Shown one piece after another: positions 1,523 through 29,506 of a stretch of 64,000 bases of DNA. The translations under genes were made by a program, and so were the position numbers. How positions within the stretch are numbered: position 1 is the stretch's first letter; every line of letters begins with the position of its first letter. Below the pieces are notes generated by a model that made no database searches, was not told where the DNA came from, and was given only the letters and a program-made list of their open reading frames with translations. This stretch comes from an uncultured Gammaproteobacteria bacterium (GTDB lineage: Bacteria > Patescibacteriota > Microgenomatia > UBA10105 > UBA927), in assembly GCA_964515005.1 (NCBI GenBank), contig CAZEVT010000004.1, forward strand, positions 4,302 through 68,301. Direction: 5' to 3'.

Positions 1523-1590
1523 ACACGCACCTTACTCAGATTTGCAGCCCGACAGGGCGAAAAAGCTGATTAGATGCGTGGATATCCGGA
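1523..1590 (+). promoter_or_regulatory. conserved structured leader element, copy 1 (candidate cis-regulatory RNA)
   Basis: core UUACUCAGAUUUGCAGCCCGACAGGGCGAAAAAGCUGAUUAGAUG enclosed by the helix CACGCA/UGCGUG; two further copies with different closing helices; about 65 nt upstream of the 1658 start codon. Confidence 0.6.
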
Positions 1591-3366: not shown

Positions 3367-4050
3367 ATGATCAAAGTTTTGCCTAAAGGTGCCGGTCATA
3401 GAAAACGATTAAGAGATAGATTTCTACAATCGGGCTTAGATGGATTTCTAGATTATGAAGTGATCGAATTGCTTTTAACTTTGGGAACACCCAGACGGGA
3501 TTGTAAGCAGATGGCGAAAGATGTGGTTAAAAAATTTAATGGGTTACGCGGCGCTCTTGATGCCTCAATTGAAGAATTACAAAATATTAGTGGAATAGGT
3601 CCGTATAATGCATTTGGCCTAAAACTCTTTCAGGAAATGTCTGCGCGTCTGGCAAGGGAGCAAATACCAGAAAAGATTACGCTCGATTCTTCAAAAGCTG
3701 TTGCGAATTATTTACAAAAATCTATAGGTTCAAAAAAGAAAGAATATTTTATTATGTTATCTTTAGACGCACGAAATAACTTAATAAAGATTAGTAATAT
3801 TTCAGTTGGTTCGCTTAACGCAAGCATTGTGCACCCAAGGGAGATTTTTAAAGAGGCAATTCAATCTTCTGCTGCGCACATATTAATAGCGCACAATCAT
3901 CCATCGGGTGACCCTGAAGCTTCGCCGGAAGATGTTGCCTTAACGCGACGATTGGGGGAAGCCGCAAAGATTTTTGACATAGATTTACTTGATCATGTTA
4001 TAGTTACAAGAGACAATTTTTTTAGCTTAAAGGAGCAAAATTTAATTTAA
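3367..4050 (+). CDS. radC: RadC-like JAB-domain protein (UPF0758)
   Basis: HNHPSGDPEASPEDVALTRRL JAMM/JAB motif and overall RadC length; first gene of the AT-rich island. Confidence 0.85.
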   Translation: MIKVLPKGAGHRKRLRDRFLQSGLDGFLDYEVIELLLTLGTPRRDCKQMAKDVVKKFNGLRGALDASIEELQNISGIGPYNAFGLKLFQEMSARLAREQIPEKITLDSSKAVANYLQKSIGSKKKEYFIMLSLDARNNLIKISNISVGSLNASIVHPREIFKEAIQSSAAHILIAHNHPSGDPEASPEDVALTRRLGEAAKIFDIDLLDHVIVTRDNFFSLKEQNLI

Positions 4051-4054
4051 ATAA

Positions 4055-4402
4055 ATGTCTGGTATAAAAAAACTTACAGAAAAAATTAAGAAATTTCGAG
4101 ATGAGCGAGATTGGAAACAATTTCATAACCCGAAAGATATGTCCCTTTCGCTAGTTTTGGAGGCGGCAGAGGTAATGGAGCATTTCCAATGGATGAGTTC
4201 AGAAGAAATGATAGTTTATACAAAAAGTAATAAGCATGAAATTGGTGAAGAGTTGGCAGACGTATTATATTGGATTCTTCTCATAAGTCATGATTTAGAG
4301 ATTGATATTATAGATGCATTAGAAAAGAAGCTTATAATTCAAGAAAAAAAATATCCAATAGAAAAAGCTAAGGGGAAGCACACTAAATATAACAAGCTTT
4401 AA
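4055..4402 (+). CDS. MazG-like nucleotide pyrophosphohydrolase domain protein
   Basis: about 115 aa; LEAAEVMEHFQW and EELADVLYWIL helices characteristic of MazG/NTP-PPase all-alpha domains; 4 nt after radC. Confidence 0.7.
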   Translation: MSGIKKLTEKIKKFRDERDWKQFHNPKDMSLSLVLEAAEVMEHFQWMSSEEMIVYTKSNKHEIGEELADVLYWILLISHDLEIDIIDALEKKLIIQEKKYPIEKAKGKHTKYNKL

Positions 4403-4405
4403 ATT

Positions 4406-6265
4406 ATGATCCTTTACGATGCCTCTATAGAACATTTTAATGAAGACGTAATGCAAAATCGTATTGCAGATCGTGCAGCCGAAAAATATCACGCGTACTA
4501 TAAAAGACAACCGGGGGAGTCTGAATATCGTTCATGGGCAATGTCGTTGGCAATTTTAAACAATAGCTTCATCTATGCTGGACTTAAAGATAATCATATA
4601 GTAGTTGAATACGAGCTCCCATTCGCTTCACAAAGGATCGATGTGTTATTGTTTGGACATGATGTTGATGGAAAAGAAAATATAGTGATTATGGAGCTTA
4701 AACAGTGGTCAAATGACAATGTTAAGGATTCAATTTCAGAGGGAAATATAATCGTTAATTATGGAAAATTCAAAAAAGAACAACCCCATCCGGCTTTGCA
4801 GGTGCAGGGGTATTATTTCGGTTTGAAAGATTTTGTTCAAGTTTTTGATGAAACAAATGCTCCAGATTTGAGCGCGACTATCTATGCACATAATTATTCG
4901 AAATACAAAGATGCAACACTCTTTTCTCCTAAATATTCTGAATTAATAAAAACGTTCCCGATATTTACAAAAGAAGATGCTGTCGAACTCGGCAGGTATT
5001 TAAAAAAACGTCTCCAAAGTGGAAAGGGGCAGTTGGTTTATGAACACTTTGCAAGAAGTCCAATCGGCCCATCAAAAAAACTTCTTGATCACACGAGTGA
5101 AATGATTAATAAACAACAAATATTTAACTTAATTGATGATCAAATTGTAGCGTACAACGCCATCATGCACAAAGCAAAACAGTTAGCAAAAATAAAAAAG
5201 AAATCAGTAATAATCGTAAAAGGTGGTCCTGGCACAGGGAAGTCAGTCATCGCGCTCGAGGTTATGGGTGAGCTTTTAAGGCGGGGAAAAACGGTTATGC
5301 ACGCTACTGGTTCGTCCGCGTTTACAAACACACTTAGAAAAATTGTTGGCGTTCGCGCACGAACTCTCTTCAAGTTTTTTAATGGCTTTACAACAACCAA
5401 ACCAGATTCTCTTGATGTTCTTGTCTGTGATGAGGCACATCGTATTAGAGAGACTAGTGTGAACAGATACACTCCTAGAGATCAAAGAACAAATTTGCCT
5501 CAGATCGACGAATTATTAAGAATAGCAAAGCTAAATATTTTCTTTATCGATGAAAATCAAACAGTTCGCCCAAATGAAATCGGCAGTGTTGCAATCATTA
5601 AAGAAGCTGCCAGACGCTTTGAGATCGATGAGTCAGAAATAATTGAATTTGAATTAAAAACCCAGTTTCGTTGTTCTGGGTCGGATGCATATTTACAATG
5701 GATTGATAAAGTTTTAGATATTCAAGGTTCTGACATCGCACACTTTGATCCTAAAATGGAATTTCGTATTTTTGAGTCTCCGTCTGAAATGATGACGGAA
5801 ATTAGAGCTAGAAATCAAGAGAAGGGCAATTCTGCAAGAATAGTTGCTGGGTTTTGCTGGCCATGGAGTAATCCAAATAGTGACGGGTCCTTAGTAAGTG
5901 ATGTAAAGGTTGGTAATTTTGAAATGCCGTGGGAGAAAAAAAATGAGTTTTGGAAATGGGCAACTGACCCGAGTGGAATGGAACAAGTTGGAACAGTGTA
6001 TACGTCACAAGGTTTTGAGTTTGACTATATAGGCGTCATATTCGGTAACGATTTAGTGTATGACTTGAAAAAACAAAAATGGATTGTAAAACCAGAAAAT
6101 TCACACGACACAATGGTTACAAGAAACAATGAAGACCTAGATAGACATTTAAAAAATGTATACCGGGTACTTATGTCCAGAGCTCACAAAGGGGTTTATG
6201 TATATTTTGTGGATAAGGCAACTGAAGAGTACTTTAAAGCTAATCTTAAAGAAGAACAAAAATGA
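4406..6265 (+). CDS. DUF2075-family ATPase/helicase-like protein with an N-terminal PD-(D/E)xK-like nuclease domain (Schlafen-like architecture)
   Basis: N-terminal QRIDVLLFG...IVIMELKQW (D...ExK); Walker A GGPGTGKS; Walker B/DEAH-like LVCDEAHR; C-terminal TVYTSQGFEFDYIGVIFG typical of DUF2075/UvrD-like C-termini. Confidence 0.8.
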   Translation: MILYDASIEHFNEDVMQNRIADRAAEKYHAYYKRQPGESEYRSWAMSLAILNNSFIYAGLKDNHIVVEYELPFASQRIDVLLFGHDVDGKENIVIMELKQWSNDNVKDSISEGNIIVNYGKFKKEQPHPALQVQGYYFGLKDFVQVFDETNAPDLSATIYAHNYSKYKDATLFSPKYSELIKTFPIFTKEDAVELGRYLKKRLQSGKGQLVYEHFARSPIGPSKKLLDHTSEMINKQQIFNLIDDQIVAYNAIMHKAKQLAKIKKKSVIIVKGGPGTGKSVIALEVMGELLRRGKTVMHATGSSAFTNTLRKIVGVRARTLFKFFNGFTTTKPDSLDVLVCDEAHRIRETSVNRYTPRDQRTNLPQIDELLRIAKLNIFFIDENQTVRPNEIGSVAIIKEAARRFEIDESEIIEFELKTQFRCSGSDAYLQWIDKVLDIQGSDIAHFDPKMEFRIFESPSEMMTEIRARNQEKGNSARIVAGFCWPWSNPNSDGSLVSDVKVGNFEMPWEKKNEFWKWATDPSGMEQVGTVYTSQGFEFDYIGVIFGNDLVYDLKKQKWIVKPENSHDTMVTRNNEDLDRHLKNVYRVLMSRAHKGVYVYFVDKATEEYFKANLKEEQK

Positions 6266-6963
6266 GACAAATACAAGATGACGTCCTTTCGTATAGGGAA
6301 ATGTGCGATGCGGAAAAGGTTCAAACGCTTCAGAGAGGAATGAATTTTCGCCTCAATTCGTCATATTCAGTTATTTTAATGTCCCAGAGATCAAATGCAC
6401 CTTATGCAGATAGGATACATTCTGATGGAGTAACCATTGAATATGAGGGACATGATGTATCGCGCCAGTCATACACCCACAATCCAAAGCTTGAAGATCA
6501 ATCGCATCAGCTACCCTCAGGCAAGCTCACGCAAAATGGTTTGTTTATTGATTCAATTAATAAATACAAAGAAAATAAATCGACACCCGAGCGCGTAAAG
6601 GCGTACGAAAAAATTATGAATGGTGTCTGGTCATTGAAGGGCTATTTTGATCTCATTGACTACAAAATAGTGAATGACGGCAAGCGCAACGTATTTCGAT
6701 TTATTTTACGACTCTCGGATAAACAATCCCCTGATACGAATATTCAGAACATGCAGCTTAGTCATACACGTCTTATTCCATCTGAGGTAAAAAAAGAAGT
6801 GTGGAAGAGAGATGAAGGTAAATGTGTCAAATGCGGATCTCGAGAAAATTTACATTTCGATCACGATTTGCCCTTTTCACGAGGTGGAACAAGTCTAACA
6901 GCGAAGAACGTACGACTATTATGTTTGAAACACAATTTAGAAAAATCAGCGAAAATTCAGTAG
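6262..6963 (+). CDS. HNH endonuclease with an uncharacterised ~170-aa N-terminal domain
   Basis: C-terminal CVKCGS...LHFDHDLPFSRGG...LLCLKHN HNH motif; ATGA overlap with the upstream ATPase gene. Confidence 0.8.
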   Translation: MRQIQDDVLSYREMCDAEKVQTLQRGMNFRLNSSYSVILMSQRSNAPYADRIHSDGVTIEYEGHDVSRQSYTHNPKLEDQSHQLPSGKLTQNGLFIDSINKYKENKSTPERVKAYEKIMNGVWSLKGYFDLIDYKIVNDGKRNVFRFILRLSDKQSPDTNIQNMQLSHTRLIPSEVKKEVWKRDEGKCVKCGSRENLHFDHDLPFSRGGTSLTAKNVRLLCLKHNLEKSAKIQ

Positions 6964-7204
6964 CATTTTCTTAAACGAATTTTACCCGACACCGGTGGGG
7001 AGGGTTGAGGTGGAGGGAATGGTAAGACATAGATGCCATCGGTACGCTCAGCACAACTGAATACTTAATAATCTTCAATGCTAGAACTCCAAGGTAAAAA
7101 ATTTATCTATCACATGATTGAGTATCTTTGATACTTTTTGATATAAAAAAGCTATATTGTTTTTTGGCAGTCTTTAGATCATACTGCTTAAGTAGCTCAA
7201 TTTT

Positions 7205-7495
7205 ATGCTTGATTATGATGATATGACTACCAAAGAATTAAAAGAAAAAGAAACAGTAAGAACAAATGATCTGCTTTTAGAACTCAACAATAGAGTAGGA
7301 GTAATGATTTCTCTGCTTTTACGGATGGTGCAACAAGACAAATCATCAATAAGCCTAAAAGATCAAATTCAAATTCTTAACAATCTAGGTTTACGCCCTC
7401 GTGACATTGCCGCTATCCTTGGTAAGACCCCTACTCACATCAGTAAAGAACTTGTTGGCATAAGAAAAACAAAAACAACAGCAACCGAGGAGTAA
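7205..7495 (+). CDS. small sigma70-region-4-like HTH protein, paralog 1 of a tandem array
   Basis: ILNNLGLRPRDIAAILGKTPTHISKELVGIRK resembles the sigma70_r4/LuxR-type HTH; start may instead be Met-7. Confidence 0.55.
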   Translation: MLDYDDMTTKELKEKETVRTNDLLLELNNRVGVMISLLLRMVQQDKSSISLKDQIQILNNLGLRPRDIAAILGKTPTHISKELVGIRKTKTTATEE

Positions 7496-7501
7496 TCGAC
7501 T

Positions 7502-7717
7502 ATGAGCGACCTGCAATTACTTGAACAAATATCTAACAAGCTGAGTGCATTAATTGCGCTTTCTCTACCAAGTGACGTAATAAAAATGTCTACAGCAGAC
7601 GGAGAGCGATTACTCAGACGATTCGACCTAAACAATCAAGCTATAGCAGACATTTTGGGAACTACAAAGAGAACAATTGAAGTGATGAAGAGTAGAGATC
7701 AAAAAAATAATAAATAA
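7502..7717 (+). CDS. small sigma70-region-4-like HTH protein, paralog 2
   Basis: ERLLRRFDLNNQAIADILGTTKRTIEVMKSR; 7 nt after paralog 1. Confidence 0.55.
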   Translation: MSDLQLLEQISNKLSALIALSLPSDVIKMSTADGERLLRRFDLNNQAIADILGTTKRTIEVMKSRDQKNNK

Positions 7718-7719
7718 AC

Positions 7720-7908
7720 ATGGAAGACACAAAGGAAATCGAAAAAACGCTTAATAATCTCAAAAAATCAATTGATACTTTGATTTTGCTTGAGCTTTGT
7801 AAACTCGGTGCCGGCGCAAAAGAAATTCGAAATATTTTAGGGGGTTTGGACAATAATCAATTTTCCGCTATAAATGCAGCTATCAAAGGAGGCAAACAAC
7901 ATGGATGA
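7720..7908 (+). CDS. small HTH-like protein, paralog 3
   Basis: LCKLGAGAKEIRNILG; 3 nt after paralog 2; same N-terminal amphipathic helix pattern. Confidence 0.5.
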   Translation: MEDTKEIEKTLNNLKKSIDTLILLELCKLGAGAKEIRNILGGLDNNQFSAINAAIKGGKQHG

Positions 7909-8080
7909 AAAAATTATCGGCATCCTAGAGGATATAAAAAAATTAGTAATTCTTGGTTTAATTACACGCGGTGTTCAGGGAAAAGACATAGCCCAGGTAA
8001 TCGGGGTAGATAAAAGCACGATCACGAGAATAGCCCCAGCACGAAAAATAAAAGTGAATAAAATAGATGAGCAGATATAA
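7901..8080 (+). CDS. small HTH-like protein, paralog 4
   Basis: LGLITRGVQGKDIAQVIGVDKSTITRIA. The ORF track opens at 7874, but ATG 7901 gives an 8-nt overlap with paralog 3 and is preferred. Confidence 0.5.
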   Translation: MDEKIIGILEDIKKLVILGLITRGVQGKDIAQVIGVDKSTITRIAPARKIKVNKIDEQI

Positions 8081-8477
8081 TCCCGATTTAATAAAAAAAA
8101 TAAGTCAAAAACTTAACAAAGCCCCGACCTATATTCGAGAGCAGATAAGCCGACGTGCATTACGACATAATATTTTATCAGAGGCAGAATTAGCCAATTG
8201 GGCAAGATCTTTAGGAATTTCTGCGGATTCATATATCCGCACATTATCGCCAAGTGTTCAAAGTCAAATTTTATCAACTCCCTCACCTGTTAAAAATTAT
8301 TTTTCTAAACCCTCAGTACTAAGGATTGTTCAACTTGGTAAAAAAGAAAATGAATGGTATAACCTTTGGTGGGTGCAGCTACTAATAGCCTTTTTTGTAG
8401 TAGGGATATTAGCAAGTACAATTTCTCAAATTTTAGGGGTATATTTTACAAATTCACTCGGTTTAACTAAACCATAA
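8067..8477 (+). CDS. membrane-anchored relative of the HTH array (N-terminal HTH-like segment plus C-terminal TM helix)
   Basis: SEAELANWARSLGISADSYIRTL followed by the hydrophobic WWVQLLIAFFVVGILASTISQILGVYF; overlaps paralog 4. Confidence 0.5.
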   Translation: MSRYNPDLIKKISQKLNKAPTYIREQISRRALRHNILSEAELANWARSLGISADSYIRTLSPSVQSQILSTPSPVKNYFSKPSVLRIVQLGKKENEWYNLWWVQLLIAFFVVGILASTISQILGVYFTNSLGLTKP

Positions 8478-8581
8478 GTCGCAGACATGCCTTGAAGCCT
8501 AAATTATTTCCCCACGGCGTGGATTGCCGGAGAAATGATTACACACCGGGTGTGAAATAGCTAGACACCTAATAAAAATTT

Positions 8582-8609
8582 ATGTATAAACTTTCTCCAT
8601 CAGATTTTG
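8582..8609 (+). repeat. 28-bp direct repeat, copy A (5' end of the nuclease gene)
   Basis: atgtataaactttctccatcagattttg matches 10253..10280 at 27 of 28 positions. Confidence 0.8.
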
Positions 8610-9229
8610 CTTATTTATACGAGGAGTGTAAGCATTGCTATTACCTGAAAATCCGTAAGGGCATTGGGCGGCCGAGCATGCCGTTCCCCGGAGTATTTGG
8701 CGCGATCAATACCAGATTGCAGGGGAATATGGTGGGGAAGGACTTGCGGGAGCTTTCGGATAAACTCCCCGAGGGGACCGTGGAGAGTCAGGAGGGGTAT
8801 GTGCAATCCGCCGTTATTGCCGGAACCACGGTATTTGTCAAAGGCAAGTATGATCTTCTGGTCAGACTCCCGGATGGCACGTACATGATAGTTGATCTCA
8901 AACTCAGTACTCCGAAAGATGAGAAGGTTGCCAAATATCAATCGCAACTATGGTCGTATGTATATGCCTTTGAACATCCTGCCGCGGGAGCACCAAAGAA
9001 GATAACGCGGGCGGGACTCCTGATTTTCTATCCCGATGCCGTTTCATTTGCCGGCGGCGTCGCTTCCCTTACGTTTCCGCCCACGTGGCTGGCGGTACCG
9101 GTGGACCGCGATGCATTTGCGAAGTTTATCGTAGGAGTGAACGATCTTTTGGAAGGCCCAACGCCGCCGGAGAATACGGATTGTAATTGGTGTAAATATA
9201 GACAAGCTGTTAAAGTGCTTGAAAACTGA
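8582..9229 (+). CDS. PD-(D/E)xK nuclease of the RecB/Cas4-like family with N- and C-terminal Cys pairs
   Basis: motifs KYDLLV, IVDLKLS (DxK) and QSQLWSYVYAF (QxxxY); CKHCYY near the N-terminus and CNWCKY near the C-terminus. Confidence 0.65.
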   Translation: MYKLSPSDFAYLYEECKHCYYLKIRKGIGRPSMPFPGVFGAINTRLQGNMVGKDLRELSDKLPEGTVESQEGYVQSAVIAGTTVFVKGKYDLLVRLPDGTYMIVDLKLSTPKDEKVAKYQSQLWSYVYAFEHPAAGAPKKITRAGLLIFYPDAVSFAGGVASLTFPPTWLAVPVDRDAFAKFIVGVNDLLEGPTPPENTDCNWCKYRQAVKVLEN

Positions 9230-17765: not shown

Positions 17766-17769
17766 TTTG

Positions 17770-17841
17770 TAGCGCGTAGGGGAGTCGAACCCCTCTTGCT
17801 AGATTGAGAATCTAACGTCCTAACCGATAGACGAACGCGCC
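17770..17841 (-). tRNA. tRNA-Glu (anticodon CUC)
   Basis: hand-folded from the reverse complement GGCGCGUUCGUCUAUCGGUUAGGACGUUAGAUUCUCAAUCUAGCAAGAGGGGUUCGACUCCCCUACGCGCUA. It has a 7-bp acceptor stem (G1-U72 wobble), a 3-bp D stem as in bacterial tRNA-Glu, the anticodon loop UUCUCAA, and a GGGGUUCGACUCCCC T-arm. No CCA is encoded. Confidence 0.75.
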
Positions 17842-29378: not shown

Positions 29379-29426
29379 CGAAAGTGATCCCTTGCGGAAG
29401 TAGATATTTGTAAGTAAAATAACATA

Positions 29427-29494
29427 TACTCATTTTACTCAGGTTTGCAGCCCGATAGGGCGAAAAAACTGATTAGATGAGTAGATACCCGGAC
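29427..29494 (+). promoter_or_regulatory. conserved structured leader element, copy 3
   Basis: same core; closing helix UACUCAU/AUGAGUA; ends about 20 nt before ATG 29516. Confidence 0.6.
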
Positions 29495-29506
29495 GGGTAA
29501 AATCCC

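Follow-up and report, generated by a model that had tools for sequence, protein, structure and literature searches.

Three copies of a small hairpin-forming element lie in a 64,000-nucleotide stretch of contig CAZEVT010000004.1 (hereafter the window, meaning that whole stretch). We consider it probable, at roughly 0.7, that they belong to a hairpin repeat of Candidate Phyla Radiation (CPR) bacteria which resembles MITEs (miniature inverted-repeat transposable elements) and the Correia elements, uses the TATA of -10 boxes as insertion sites and brings promoter parts as a replacement. On this account, the element is a mobile or recently mobile non-coding repeat present in Gottesmanbacteria, WWE3 and relatives. 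The account draws on the observed copy number and distribution of the repeat, its compensated hairpins, its presence and absence at orthologous sites, its TATA flanks and the geometry of the neighboring start codons. An earlier, sequence-only reading had taken the copies for a new cis-regulatory RNA; of that proposal, the covarying structure outside any Rfam family stood, but the conserved 5' leader did not, in view of mixed orientations, unrelated neighbors and empty orthologous sites.

In the proposed mechanism, two hairpin-forming halves between two TATA tetranucleotides would insert preferentially in or beside the -10 box of leaderless genes. Insertion would separate the -10 box from its -35 box, while the TATA at each end would leave either side with a -10 box, and an outward-facing -35-like hexamer, (C/T)TGCAA, would lie 16-18 nt inside each end. 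With such boxes at both ends, the flanking genes would stay expressed, so that the insertion would be tolerated.

The 45-nt core (TTACTCAGRTTTGYAGYCCGAYAGGRCGAAAAARCTGATTAGATG) occurs exactly three times in the window, at 1532-1576, 2845-2889 and 29435-29479, always on the + strand. These near-identical copies, which the sequence-only reading had pointed out, were borne out, and the core was matched in 0 of 100 dinucleotide shuffles. A covariance model run on the window with its filters off scored copies 1, 2 and 3 at 83.1, 71.9 and 83.6 bits, respectively, and returned no fourth copy.

Presence and absence at orthologous sites

As is characteristic of MITEs, insertion-like presence and absence at orthologous sites was found for all three copies. 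The loci compared with the window, homologous or related, carry L-numbers (e.g. L114); H1 denotes the first hairpin of the element and H2 the second hairpin, directly 3' of H1. The features of the three window sites are the following.

Copy 1
1519-1585, + strand: H1 (covariance model and fold), composed of P0 GUA/UAU; P1 CACGCACCU/AGAUGCGUG; loop UAC/UU; P2 UCAG/CUGA; an A.G pair; UUU/AAA; loop GCA/GAA; and P3 GCCC-GACA-GGGC
1581-1613, + strand: H2 of the Gottesmanbacteria type, GAUAUCC...GGGUGUA, a form common to copy 2, L004 and L022
~1524-1609, + strand: element proper
1610-1613: right flank TGTA, a degenerate TATA
1518-1523, - strand: TATACT, -10 hexamer 8 nt ahead of the ATG (1509) of the divergent 304-aa gene (595-1509)
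1619-1647, + strand: TTGACA-17-TTTACT, putative sigma-70-like promoter that separates copy 1 from the 204-aa gene (ATG 1658)

Copy 2
2831-2835: left direct repeat GTATA
2836-2921, + strand: inserted element proper of 86 nt, missing at the orthologous site of L114 and L116
2831-2898 and 2894-2926, + strand: H1 and H2
2922-2926, + strand: right GTATA repeat
2923-2928, + strand: predicted rebuilt -10 box TATAAT of the DUF4112 gene (ATG 2944), made of the right GTATA and the native AT

Copy 3
29392-29420, + strand: predicted native promoter of the DsbA-like gene, TTGCGG (29392-29397), 17 nt, TAAAAT (29415-29420), kept in element-free relatives
29425-29501, + strand: copy with its flanks, i.e. left TATA 29425-29428, element proper 29429-29497 and right TAAA 29498-29501
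29427-29483 and 29486-29499: H1 and a short H2, UACCC-GGAC-GGGUA
29498-29503, + strand: second -10-like box TAAAAT, 12 nt before ATG 29516 of the DsbA-like gene

For copy 2, orthologs of the DUF4112 gene were found in L114 (72% identity), together with an ortholog of the upstream 104-aa gene (45%), and in L116 (76%). Both loci keep the two flanks of the site, where ...GCGTGAGTAAGGTATA is joined directly to ATTTGAGCATTCCACTCATGAAATCAC in L114 and ...GGGAGTATA to CTTTGAGTATTAGATTTATGAAATCAC in L116. Around the -10 box these empty sites read GGTATAATTTGAGC and GAGTATACTTTGAG, with ...GGTATA running into ATTTGAGC..., and the window reads ...GCGTGAGGGGAGTATA, then the insert (CAGCCC...TTTATAGG), then GTATA joined to ATTTGAGCATTCCTCTGATGAAATCAT. 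Copy 2 is an insert within the native TATAAT, with GTATA twice around the copy and once at the empty site; through the right repeat, GGGTATAAT is again present 15 nt ahead of the ATG. The copy would lie upstream of the rebuilt -10 box of the DUF4112 gene.

For copy 3, three Gottesmanbacteria relatives (L107, L109 and L110) have the gene order of the window (thioredoxin/DsbA, EamA, DsbA-like, RuvC) at 68-78% protein identity, and a spacer of 52-65 nt without the element precedes their DsbA-like gene. This spacer holds TTGCGG-17-TACAAT (or TAATAT, TAGAAT), a short leader and the Shine-Dalgarno motif GGAGG. In the window, the promoter is kept and followed by ~73 extra nucleotides (29429-29501), and GGAGG is gone. 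From the sequence of the native promoter, transcription would start at ~29427, in the first bases of copy 3, which would then form the 5'-terminal structure of the DsbA-like mRNA, or else the gene may have been taken over by the TAAAAT of the copy itself (29498-29503).

For copy 1, orthologs of the 304-aa gene in L111 (87% identity) and L114 (78%) are preceded by unrelated sequence without the element, and L112 (86%) keeps the left arm alone, CTGCAAATCTGGGTTAGATACGTA joined to TATACT (L112 ~3940-4007), which is the part readable as -35 box plus spacer for this ortholog. The TATACT itself is native, since element-free orthologs keep TATACT, 8 nt and the start codon, and the TATA within it (1520-1523) doubles as the left flank of copy 1; the copy may now supply the -35 region of the divergent gene. 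Adjoining the remnant in L112, beside an HTH_17 gene, lies a perfect palindrome, GGTTAACATATGTTAACC (3895-3939), which may be an operator.

With the same covariance model, no copy was found in ~114 kb of related Gottesmanbacteria DNA, compared to three in the 64 kb window. These empty sites are the decisive evidence against a conserved cis-regulatory 5' leader RNA, either a riboswitch or a protein-binding leader, that controls the downstream + strand gene. They largely refute such a leader, which we regard as highly improbable: the orthologs of the DsbA-like, DUF4112 and 304-aa genes have no element in front of them and show ordinary promoters and Shine-Dalgarno motifs instead, and copies within one genome are closer to each other than to orthologous copies elsewhere. 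The position of copy 3 would suit a leader, as a conserved promoter immediately precedes this copy and the DsbA mRNA would begin with it. Copy 3 is likely the only one to be co-transcribed as a 5' untranslated region. Given the putative separate promoter at 1619-1647, copy 1 probably sits upstream of the transcription start of the 204-aa gene, and with copy 2 as with copy 1, transcription of the downstream gene would start 3' of the hairpins; a -10 box and a leaderless start 3' of the hairpins recur at many other loci.

Hairpins, covariation and distribution of the family

Each copy forms one long irregular hairpin, H1, which consists of a closing helix, a UAC/UU loop, UCAG/CUGA, a purine-purine pair, UUU/AAA, a GCA/GAA loop, a 4-bp apical stem and a GAYA loop. 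Fold z-scores on the + strand are -4.1, -2.7 and -5.1 for copies 1 to 3. The closing helices (CACGCA/TGCGTG, CCATCT/AGATGG and TACTCAT/ATGAGTA), the UCAG/CUGA pairing and the GCCC-GAYA-GGGC apical hairpin described by the sequence-only reading are all present, the apical stem of copy 2 being compensated to GUCC/GGAC. The closing helix had also been called fully covarying: its complementarity holds, but five of nine pairs lie in a conserved AGAUG/CAUCU, double changes affect two columns, and copies 1 and 2 contain a mismatch each. The element is larger than the ~65 nt first assigned to it: since H2 adjoins H1 directly, the unit of copies 1 and 2 measures ~90-95 nt and that of copy 3 ~75 nt. H2 of the window copies (GGATAYCCGGAC...GGGTRTA) reaches ~1613, ~2926 and ~29499, and the next + strand start codons (1658, 2944 and 29516) lie 72, 45 and 32 nt past H1 of copies 1, 2 and 3.

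The family was searched with a loose pattern of the 45-nt core, which fixes most of P2, over contigs of one genome per species and over metagenomes. All seven pattern matches in genome contigs are true homologs, four from Candidatus Gottesmanbacteria, one from candidate division WWE3 and two from metagenome-assembled genomes labeled Gammaproteobacteria. The latter two (L005 and L006, 'uncultured Gammaproteobacteria') carry typical copies of the element on contigs that are probably mis-binned. Metagenomes from groundwater, sediment and similar samples added ~60 true homologs, at least seven of them at distinct loci of one metagenome (Ga0172371), whereas plasmid and phage collections held no similar sequence. 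The H1 and H2 layout is the same throughout the genome and metagenome homologs. As expected of a MITE (below ~300 bp, non-coding and multi-copy), the element measures ~90-125 nt and has no open reading frame (ORF) beyond 4-21 codons. Pattern matches set aside comprise ~30 human-gut loci (L010, L012, L015 ... L106) and one IMG/VR match, which represent a conserved coding stretch (TCTCATCCACCATATCCAGAATTTCGGGAATCAGGTTTG...) unrelated to the element, and the chance matches L013, L055, L057, L065, L075, L089 and L092.

The consensus H1 reads TATA, then CCCATCT TAC TCAG R TTT GCA G-(variable hairpin)-C GAA AAA R CTGA TT AGATGGG T, and, after a junction of 1-2 variable bases, the consensus H2 reads ATAC TGAAAAAC TCAG TTGCAAAC CTGA GTTTTTCAG, then TATA; H2 is shorter in the Gottesmanbacteria subfamily, to which the window belongs. 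On the whole window, Rfam 15 at gathering thresholds matched only tRNA-Glu (17769-17841), in agreement with the earlier failure to recognize any known riboswitch or leader class. Permissive scans gave nothing relevant at E<=10 (copies 1 and 2) or at E<=1 (L049, main family), Magnesium-II and astro_FSE being sub-threshold noise. Literature text searches with the core sequence and for structured RNAs or MITEs of CPR bacteria returned nothing on the element. The repeat family, found neither in Rfam nor in the searchable literature, is previously undescribed.

Compensatory changes in further copies, for which the sequence-only reading had suggested a homolog search, were found, the stems covarying across ~50 distinct homologs. 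Among 47 distinct H1 sequences, 86.9% of cells are paired, compared to 31-48% with slid partners as a control, and 10 pairs show changes on both sides. Covariation in H1 is found in P3, P1 and the 26-52 pair. One column of the apical stem P3 contains UA 24, CG 18 and AU 5 times, and the next CG 22, UA 20 and AU 2 times; in the second copy of L087, P2 is compensated from UCAG/CUGA to UCCG/CGGA. At the odd pair beside P2, 40 sequences have A.G, G.A or G.G, seven have A-U or G-C, and none has A-C or G-U. H2, counted on a hand-drawn structure, is paired at 83.7% versus 31-54% for slid partners, with AU/GC and AU/UA exchanges; RNAalifold returned no structure for H2 from an alignment that was not structure-aware. 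Seven copies of Ga0172371 have private variants in common, namely a CCCAACU/AGUUGGG helix and a 5-bp P3. Independent compensatory events are fewer than compensated cells because many were inherited by copies within one genome.

The covariation of the stems is real, and may reflect either a single-stranded DNA intermediate of transposition or an effect at the RNA level. For a leader RNA would speak the stable + strand fold, the covariation in P3, P1 and the 26-52 pair, the conserved asymmetric loops, the lack of an Rfam match and the excess of G.U over A.C pairs on the + strand. This excess is 24:6 in columns 7-71, P0 included, and 12:6 in P1-P3; the strand evidence is weak, the P1-P3 count not being decisive. 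C-GAA-G triloop hairpins recur in L036, L066, L085 and the Ga0172371 copies, and this motif occurs in stable DNA mini-hairpins.

The same structure, covariation and strand asymmetry would also fit a multi-copy, stand-alone small RNA gene comprising H1 (and H2) with its own promoter, which would lie near gene starts simply through the compactness of the genome. AT-rich, TATTATA-like sequence just 5' of many copies and the A-tract/stem/U-tract of H2 in the main family, which resembles a weak terminator, are in line with this idea. A + strand -10 box at the left TATA would, however, start transcription inside P1 and truncate the conserved helix, and H2 variants such as GUAAC.../GUUAC lack the U tract. 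Together with the presence and absence at orthologous sites, the location of copy 2 exactly within a native -10 box and the retention in L112 of the left arm only, the part that reads as the promoter of the neighbor, this makes a small RNA gene very unlikely.

Further readings of the hairpins were rejected. An intrinsic terminator is not supported, as no U tract follows H1 and one follows H2 in some variants only. An alternative pairing of the H2 loop (UUGCAAAC) with the 5' strand of H1 (GUUUGCA) shows no covariation, and A/G versus C/U variants mismatch in L038, L049 and L008; the complementarity is more plausibly due to one outward promoter-like arm occurring in both places. ATCTTAC and ATTAGAT resemble the R''/R' boxes of integron attC sites at 6/7 positions, but these stretches do not pair as R boxes do, the element is bordered by divergent genes and a cassette array is missing. 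A leader peptide was considered for AUG GGU AUA UAC UGA (MGIY*) in the main family and for MxxYPD in the window, but no Shine-Dalgarno motif accompanies these and conservation at the nucleotide level suffices to explain them. The tiny ORFs of the window start at the AUG of AGAUG and read MRGYPDLPK... (1573-1640), MDGYPDFP* (2886-2912) and MSRYPDG* (29476-29499).

Promoter geometry and neighboring genes

Of 49 copies, 42 have TATA on their left flank and 48 on their right, and the element ends read TATA followed by CCCATCTTACTCAGG. The main family has an imperfect terminal inverted repeat, its left end being identical at 14-19 of 24 positions to the reverse-complemented right end. In 30 of 32 copies, the right TATA is preceded at 16-17 nt by a TTGCAA-like hexamer, and CTGCAA lies 16-18 nt inside the left TATA on the opposite strand; by their spacing, these hexamers would be -35 boxes. 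Outward on the minus strand, the left end reads GGGTATATAAT, GTGTATACT or GTGTAAAAT, followed after 6-8 nt by a divergent ATG, in L019, L069, L007, L003, L054, L066, L067, L002, L004, window copy 1 and others. A divergent ORF starts at most 14 nt from the left end in ~20 of 57 copies, typically behind TATAAT, TATACT or TAAAAT. The same distance from -10 box to start is seen at the right end in L095, L031, L068, L061 and L004. In L084, 8 nt separate the TATAAT at the left element end from the start of a tRNA-Arg(TCT) gene (272-344, - strand), which suggests that an element end can serve as a tRNA promoter.

This geometry matches the habit of the window, where operon-first genes mostly start 6-8 nt after TATAAT, TATACT or TAAAAT (9411, 11418 on the - strand, 15398, 18510, 22439, 27476, 30349 on the - strand, 32002, 43480 and 50635) and a Shine-Dalgarno motif precedes 10 of 54 long ORFs. 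The Gottesmanbacteria-like organism of the window appears to rely heavily on leaderless mRNAs; the clear GGAGG at the DsbA-like ortholog of its relatives contrasts with this habit.

The genes around the element form no functional group. Scored with ORFs of at least 110 aa, both neighbors are antisense to the element in 14 loci (<E<), divergent in 10 (<E>), sense and co-directional in eight (>E>) and convergent in five (>E<); window copy 1, mis-scored in this count by a spurious ORF, is in truth divergent. Genes starting at an element end, named by reading their sequences rather than by individual scans, encode glycosyltransferases, NadE, a YjeF-type kinase, MurJ, MraY, EamA transporters, SecY, RnpA, a NUDIX protein, a 5'-3' exonuclease, a sigma factor, PMT-like transferases and an FtsB-like protein, and a tRNA gene is also among the neighbors. 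A leader RNA would require a fixed sense orientation and genes of a common function, and neither is found.

Outward -10/-35 geometry at both ends could also mark a host-encoded, non-mobile DNA module, such as a bidirectional promoter/operator cassette or a cruciform to which a conserved CPR factor binds, with arms that covary through half-site specificity. The very high sequence conservation of both arms and the variants common to all copies of one genome, as if co-evolving with a factor, agree with such a module. P1 and P3, however, differ between copies of one genome and yet stay complementary (window copies 1-3; the two L049 copies), which a shared factor fails to explain, and neither the clean, insertion-like presence and absence with duplicated GTATA nor a neighborhood without a regulon is what such a module would leave. 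We therefore hold it to be unlikely.

Several other sequences were noted near the copies. The 20-nt GC-rich palindrome CCTGCCTGCCGGCAGGCAGG represents a second repeat family and is found in L034 (~2452-2472), L028 (~827-875), L020 (~2090) and the left flank of L105; it is inserted within H1 between CTGATTA and GATGGG in L034 and L028, is multimerized in L028 and also stands free near other copies. Two short derivatives of the element were seen: a 47-nt near-perfect foldback, TATACCCAAATTATTCCAGTTTGC-AGG-CAAACTGATTTGGGTATATA, in L060 (11009-11067, - strand), identical to L070 6213-6271, and in L076 (5222-5275, + strand) a left arm with a different apical hairpin and no 3' arm, which reads TTGCAA-16-TAGAAT-6-ATG outward. 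Directly downstream of copy 2 (3367-9229), Pfam matches outline a defense-island-like run with RadC, a MazG-like protein, a 619-aa Schlafen-group-3 helicase, an HNH protein and a PD-(D/E)XK nuclease.

Known mobile repeats and the question of mobility

The closest analog of the element is the Correia element. Correia elements can create sigma-70 promoters at either or both ends, with an internal -35 box and a partial -10 box that is completed by the insertion site; they target TA, and in read-through RNA their inverted repeats give rise to RNase III hairpins (PMC2649163). Like these elements of Neisseria (CREE/NEMIS; ~70-155 bp), the present repeat is small, non-coding, multi-copy and intergenic, is present or absent between strains and uses TA-containing targets (PMC2649163). 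In contrast to them, it inserts inside (copy 2) or abutting (copy 1) an existing -10 box, has TATA on both flanks and consists of two separate hairpins with conserved asymmetric loops and covarying stems, and the window subfamily has no real terminal inverted repeat. There is no sequence similarity, the TATAGTGGATTAA... ends and the CREE core being absent, and the host is a CPR bacterium, which makes the repeat a functional analog and not a member.

A second comparison concerns IS200/IS605 elements, which move as single-stranded DNA and insert 3' of a specific tetra- or pentanucleotide without target duplication (PMC7290912). Similar to the palindrome-associated transposable elements (PATEs) of this group and to RAYT-mobilized REPINs, both served by HUH Y1 enzymes, the repeat has a hairpin instead of a long terminal inverted repeat at each end, irregular stems in which mismatches are conserved and complementarity is maintained, and a fixed tetranucleotide at both ends. 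It differs from them in the size of H1 (~70 nt versus ~20-35 nt for TnpA/RAYT hairpins), and no Y1 transposase was detected in a weak phmmer test. By analogy, the hairpins may be kept through movement or recognition as single-stranded DNA in the manner of IS200/IS605 PATEs or REPINs, or through action in read-through RNA.

The ERIC/IRU, BOX, RUP and bcr1 repeats are imperfect palindromes of ~100-150 nt, which lie between genes in either orientation, have conserved predicted structures and affect the expression of their neighbors. The present element is like them in its palindromic, intergenic form and unrelated in sequence and hosts; to our knowledge, none of them has been reported inside the -10 boxes of leaderless genes. 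It resembles Rfam riboswitches and leaders in its covarying stems and in the core nucleotides conserved within its internal loops, but it shows no Rfam match, no association with gene function, no fixed orientation and no orthologous conservation.

Several observations weigh against a mobile, promoter-carrying repeat. No transposase or autonomous partner was found: none lies near copies 1 and 2, and a phmmer search with IS200 TnpA against 2832 ORFs of the window and the loci gave no match, in a weak test with a single query over ~6% of any one genome. No longer element with the same ends was seen in ~630 kb (window and loci). The three window copies diverge by ~10%, and hence give no sign of very recent movement. 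The right repeats of copies 1 and 3 are imperfect (TGTA and TAAA), and the ends of the window/Gottesmanbacteria subfamily match at 4-9 of 24 positions, leaving almost no terminal inverted repeat. The TATA may equally be a target duplication of 4-5 bp or a fixed target plus an element-borne end, which are indistinguishable because the flank sequence is always identical. Promoter activity of the element ends is predicted from their sequence geometry. Finally, the internal loops (UAC/UU, GCA/GAA and the purine-purine or Watson-Crick pair) are ~90% conserved across phylum-level CPR lineages, which exceeds the need of a selfish repeat and hints at a conserved binding partner.

Both arms, too, are ~90% identical between these lineages. 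Such constraint exceeds the need of a promoter or of a simple terminal-repeat MITE and points to a conserved partner which reads the folded strand. It is conceivable, though still speculative, that the repeat represents a new class of hairpin-dependent mobile element across CPR phyla, whose enzyme would read the irregular hairpin as single-stranded DNA or RNA and integrate at the -10 TATA, and whose own -35 boxes would rewire leaderless promoters without silencing them. In a stronger form of this idea, H1 would in addition be an RNA module co-opted by the host, for instance as a 5'-terminal stabilizer at copy 3.

The genomes of CPR bacteria (Patescibacteria) are small and usually described as poor in mobile DNA and regulators. 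The repeat family described here appears to be widespread among them, with ~90% core identity from Gottesmanbacteria to WWE3. If confirmed, it would be a warning to RNA-motif pipelines, as palindromic mobile repeats with covariation and upstream placement mimic riboswitch candidates unless orthologous empty sites are checked. Its confirmation would also offer a handle for finding the mobilizing enzyme and would provide a concrete mechanism of promoter turnover in CPR bacteria.

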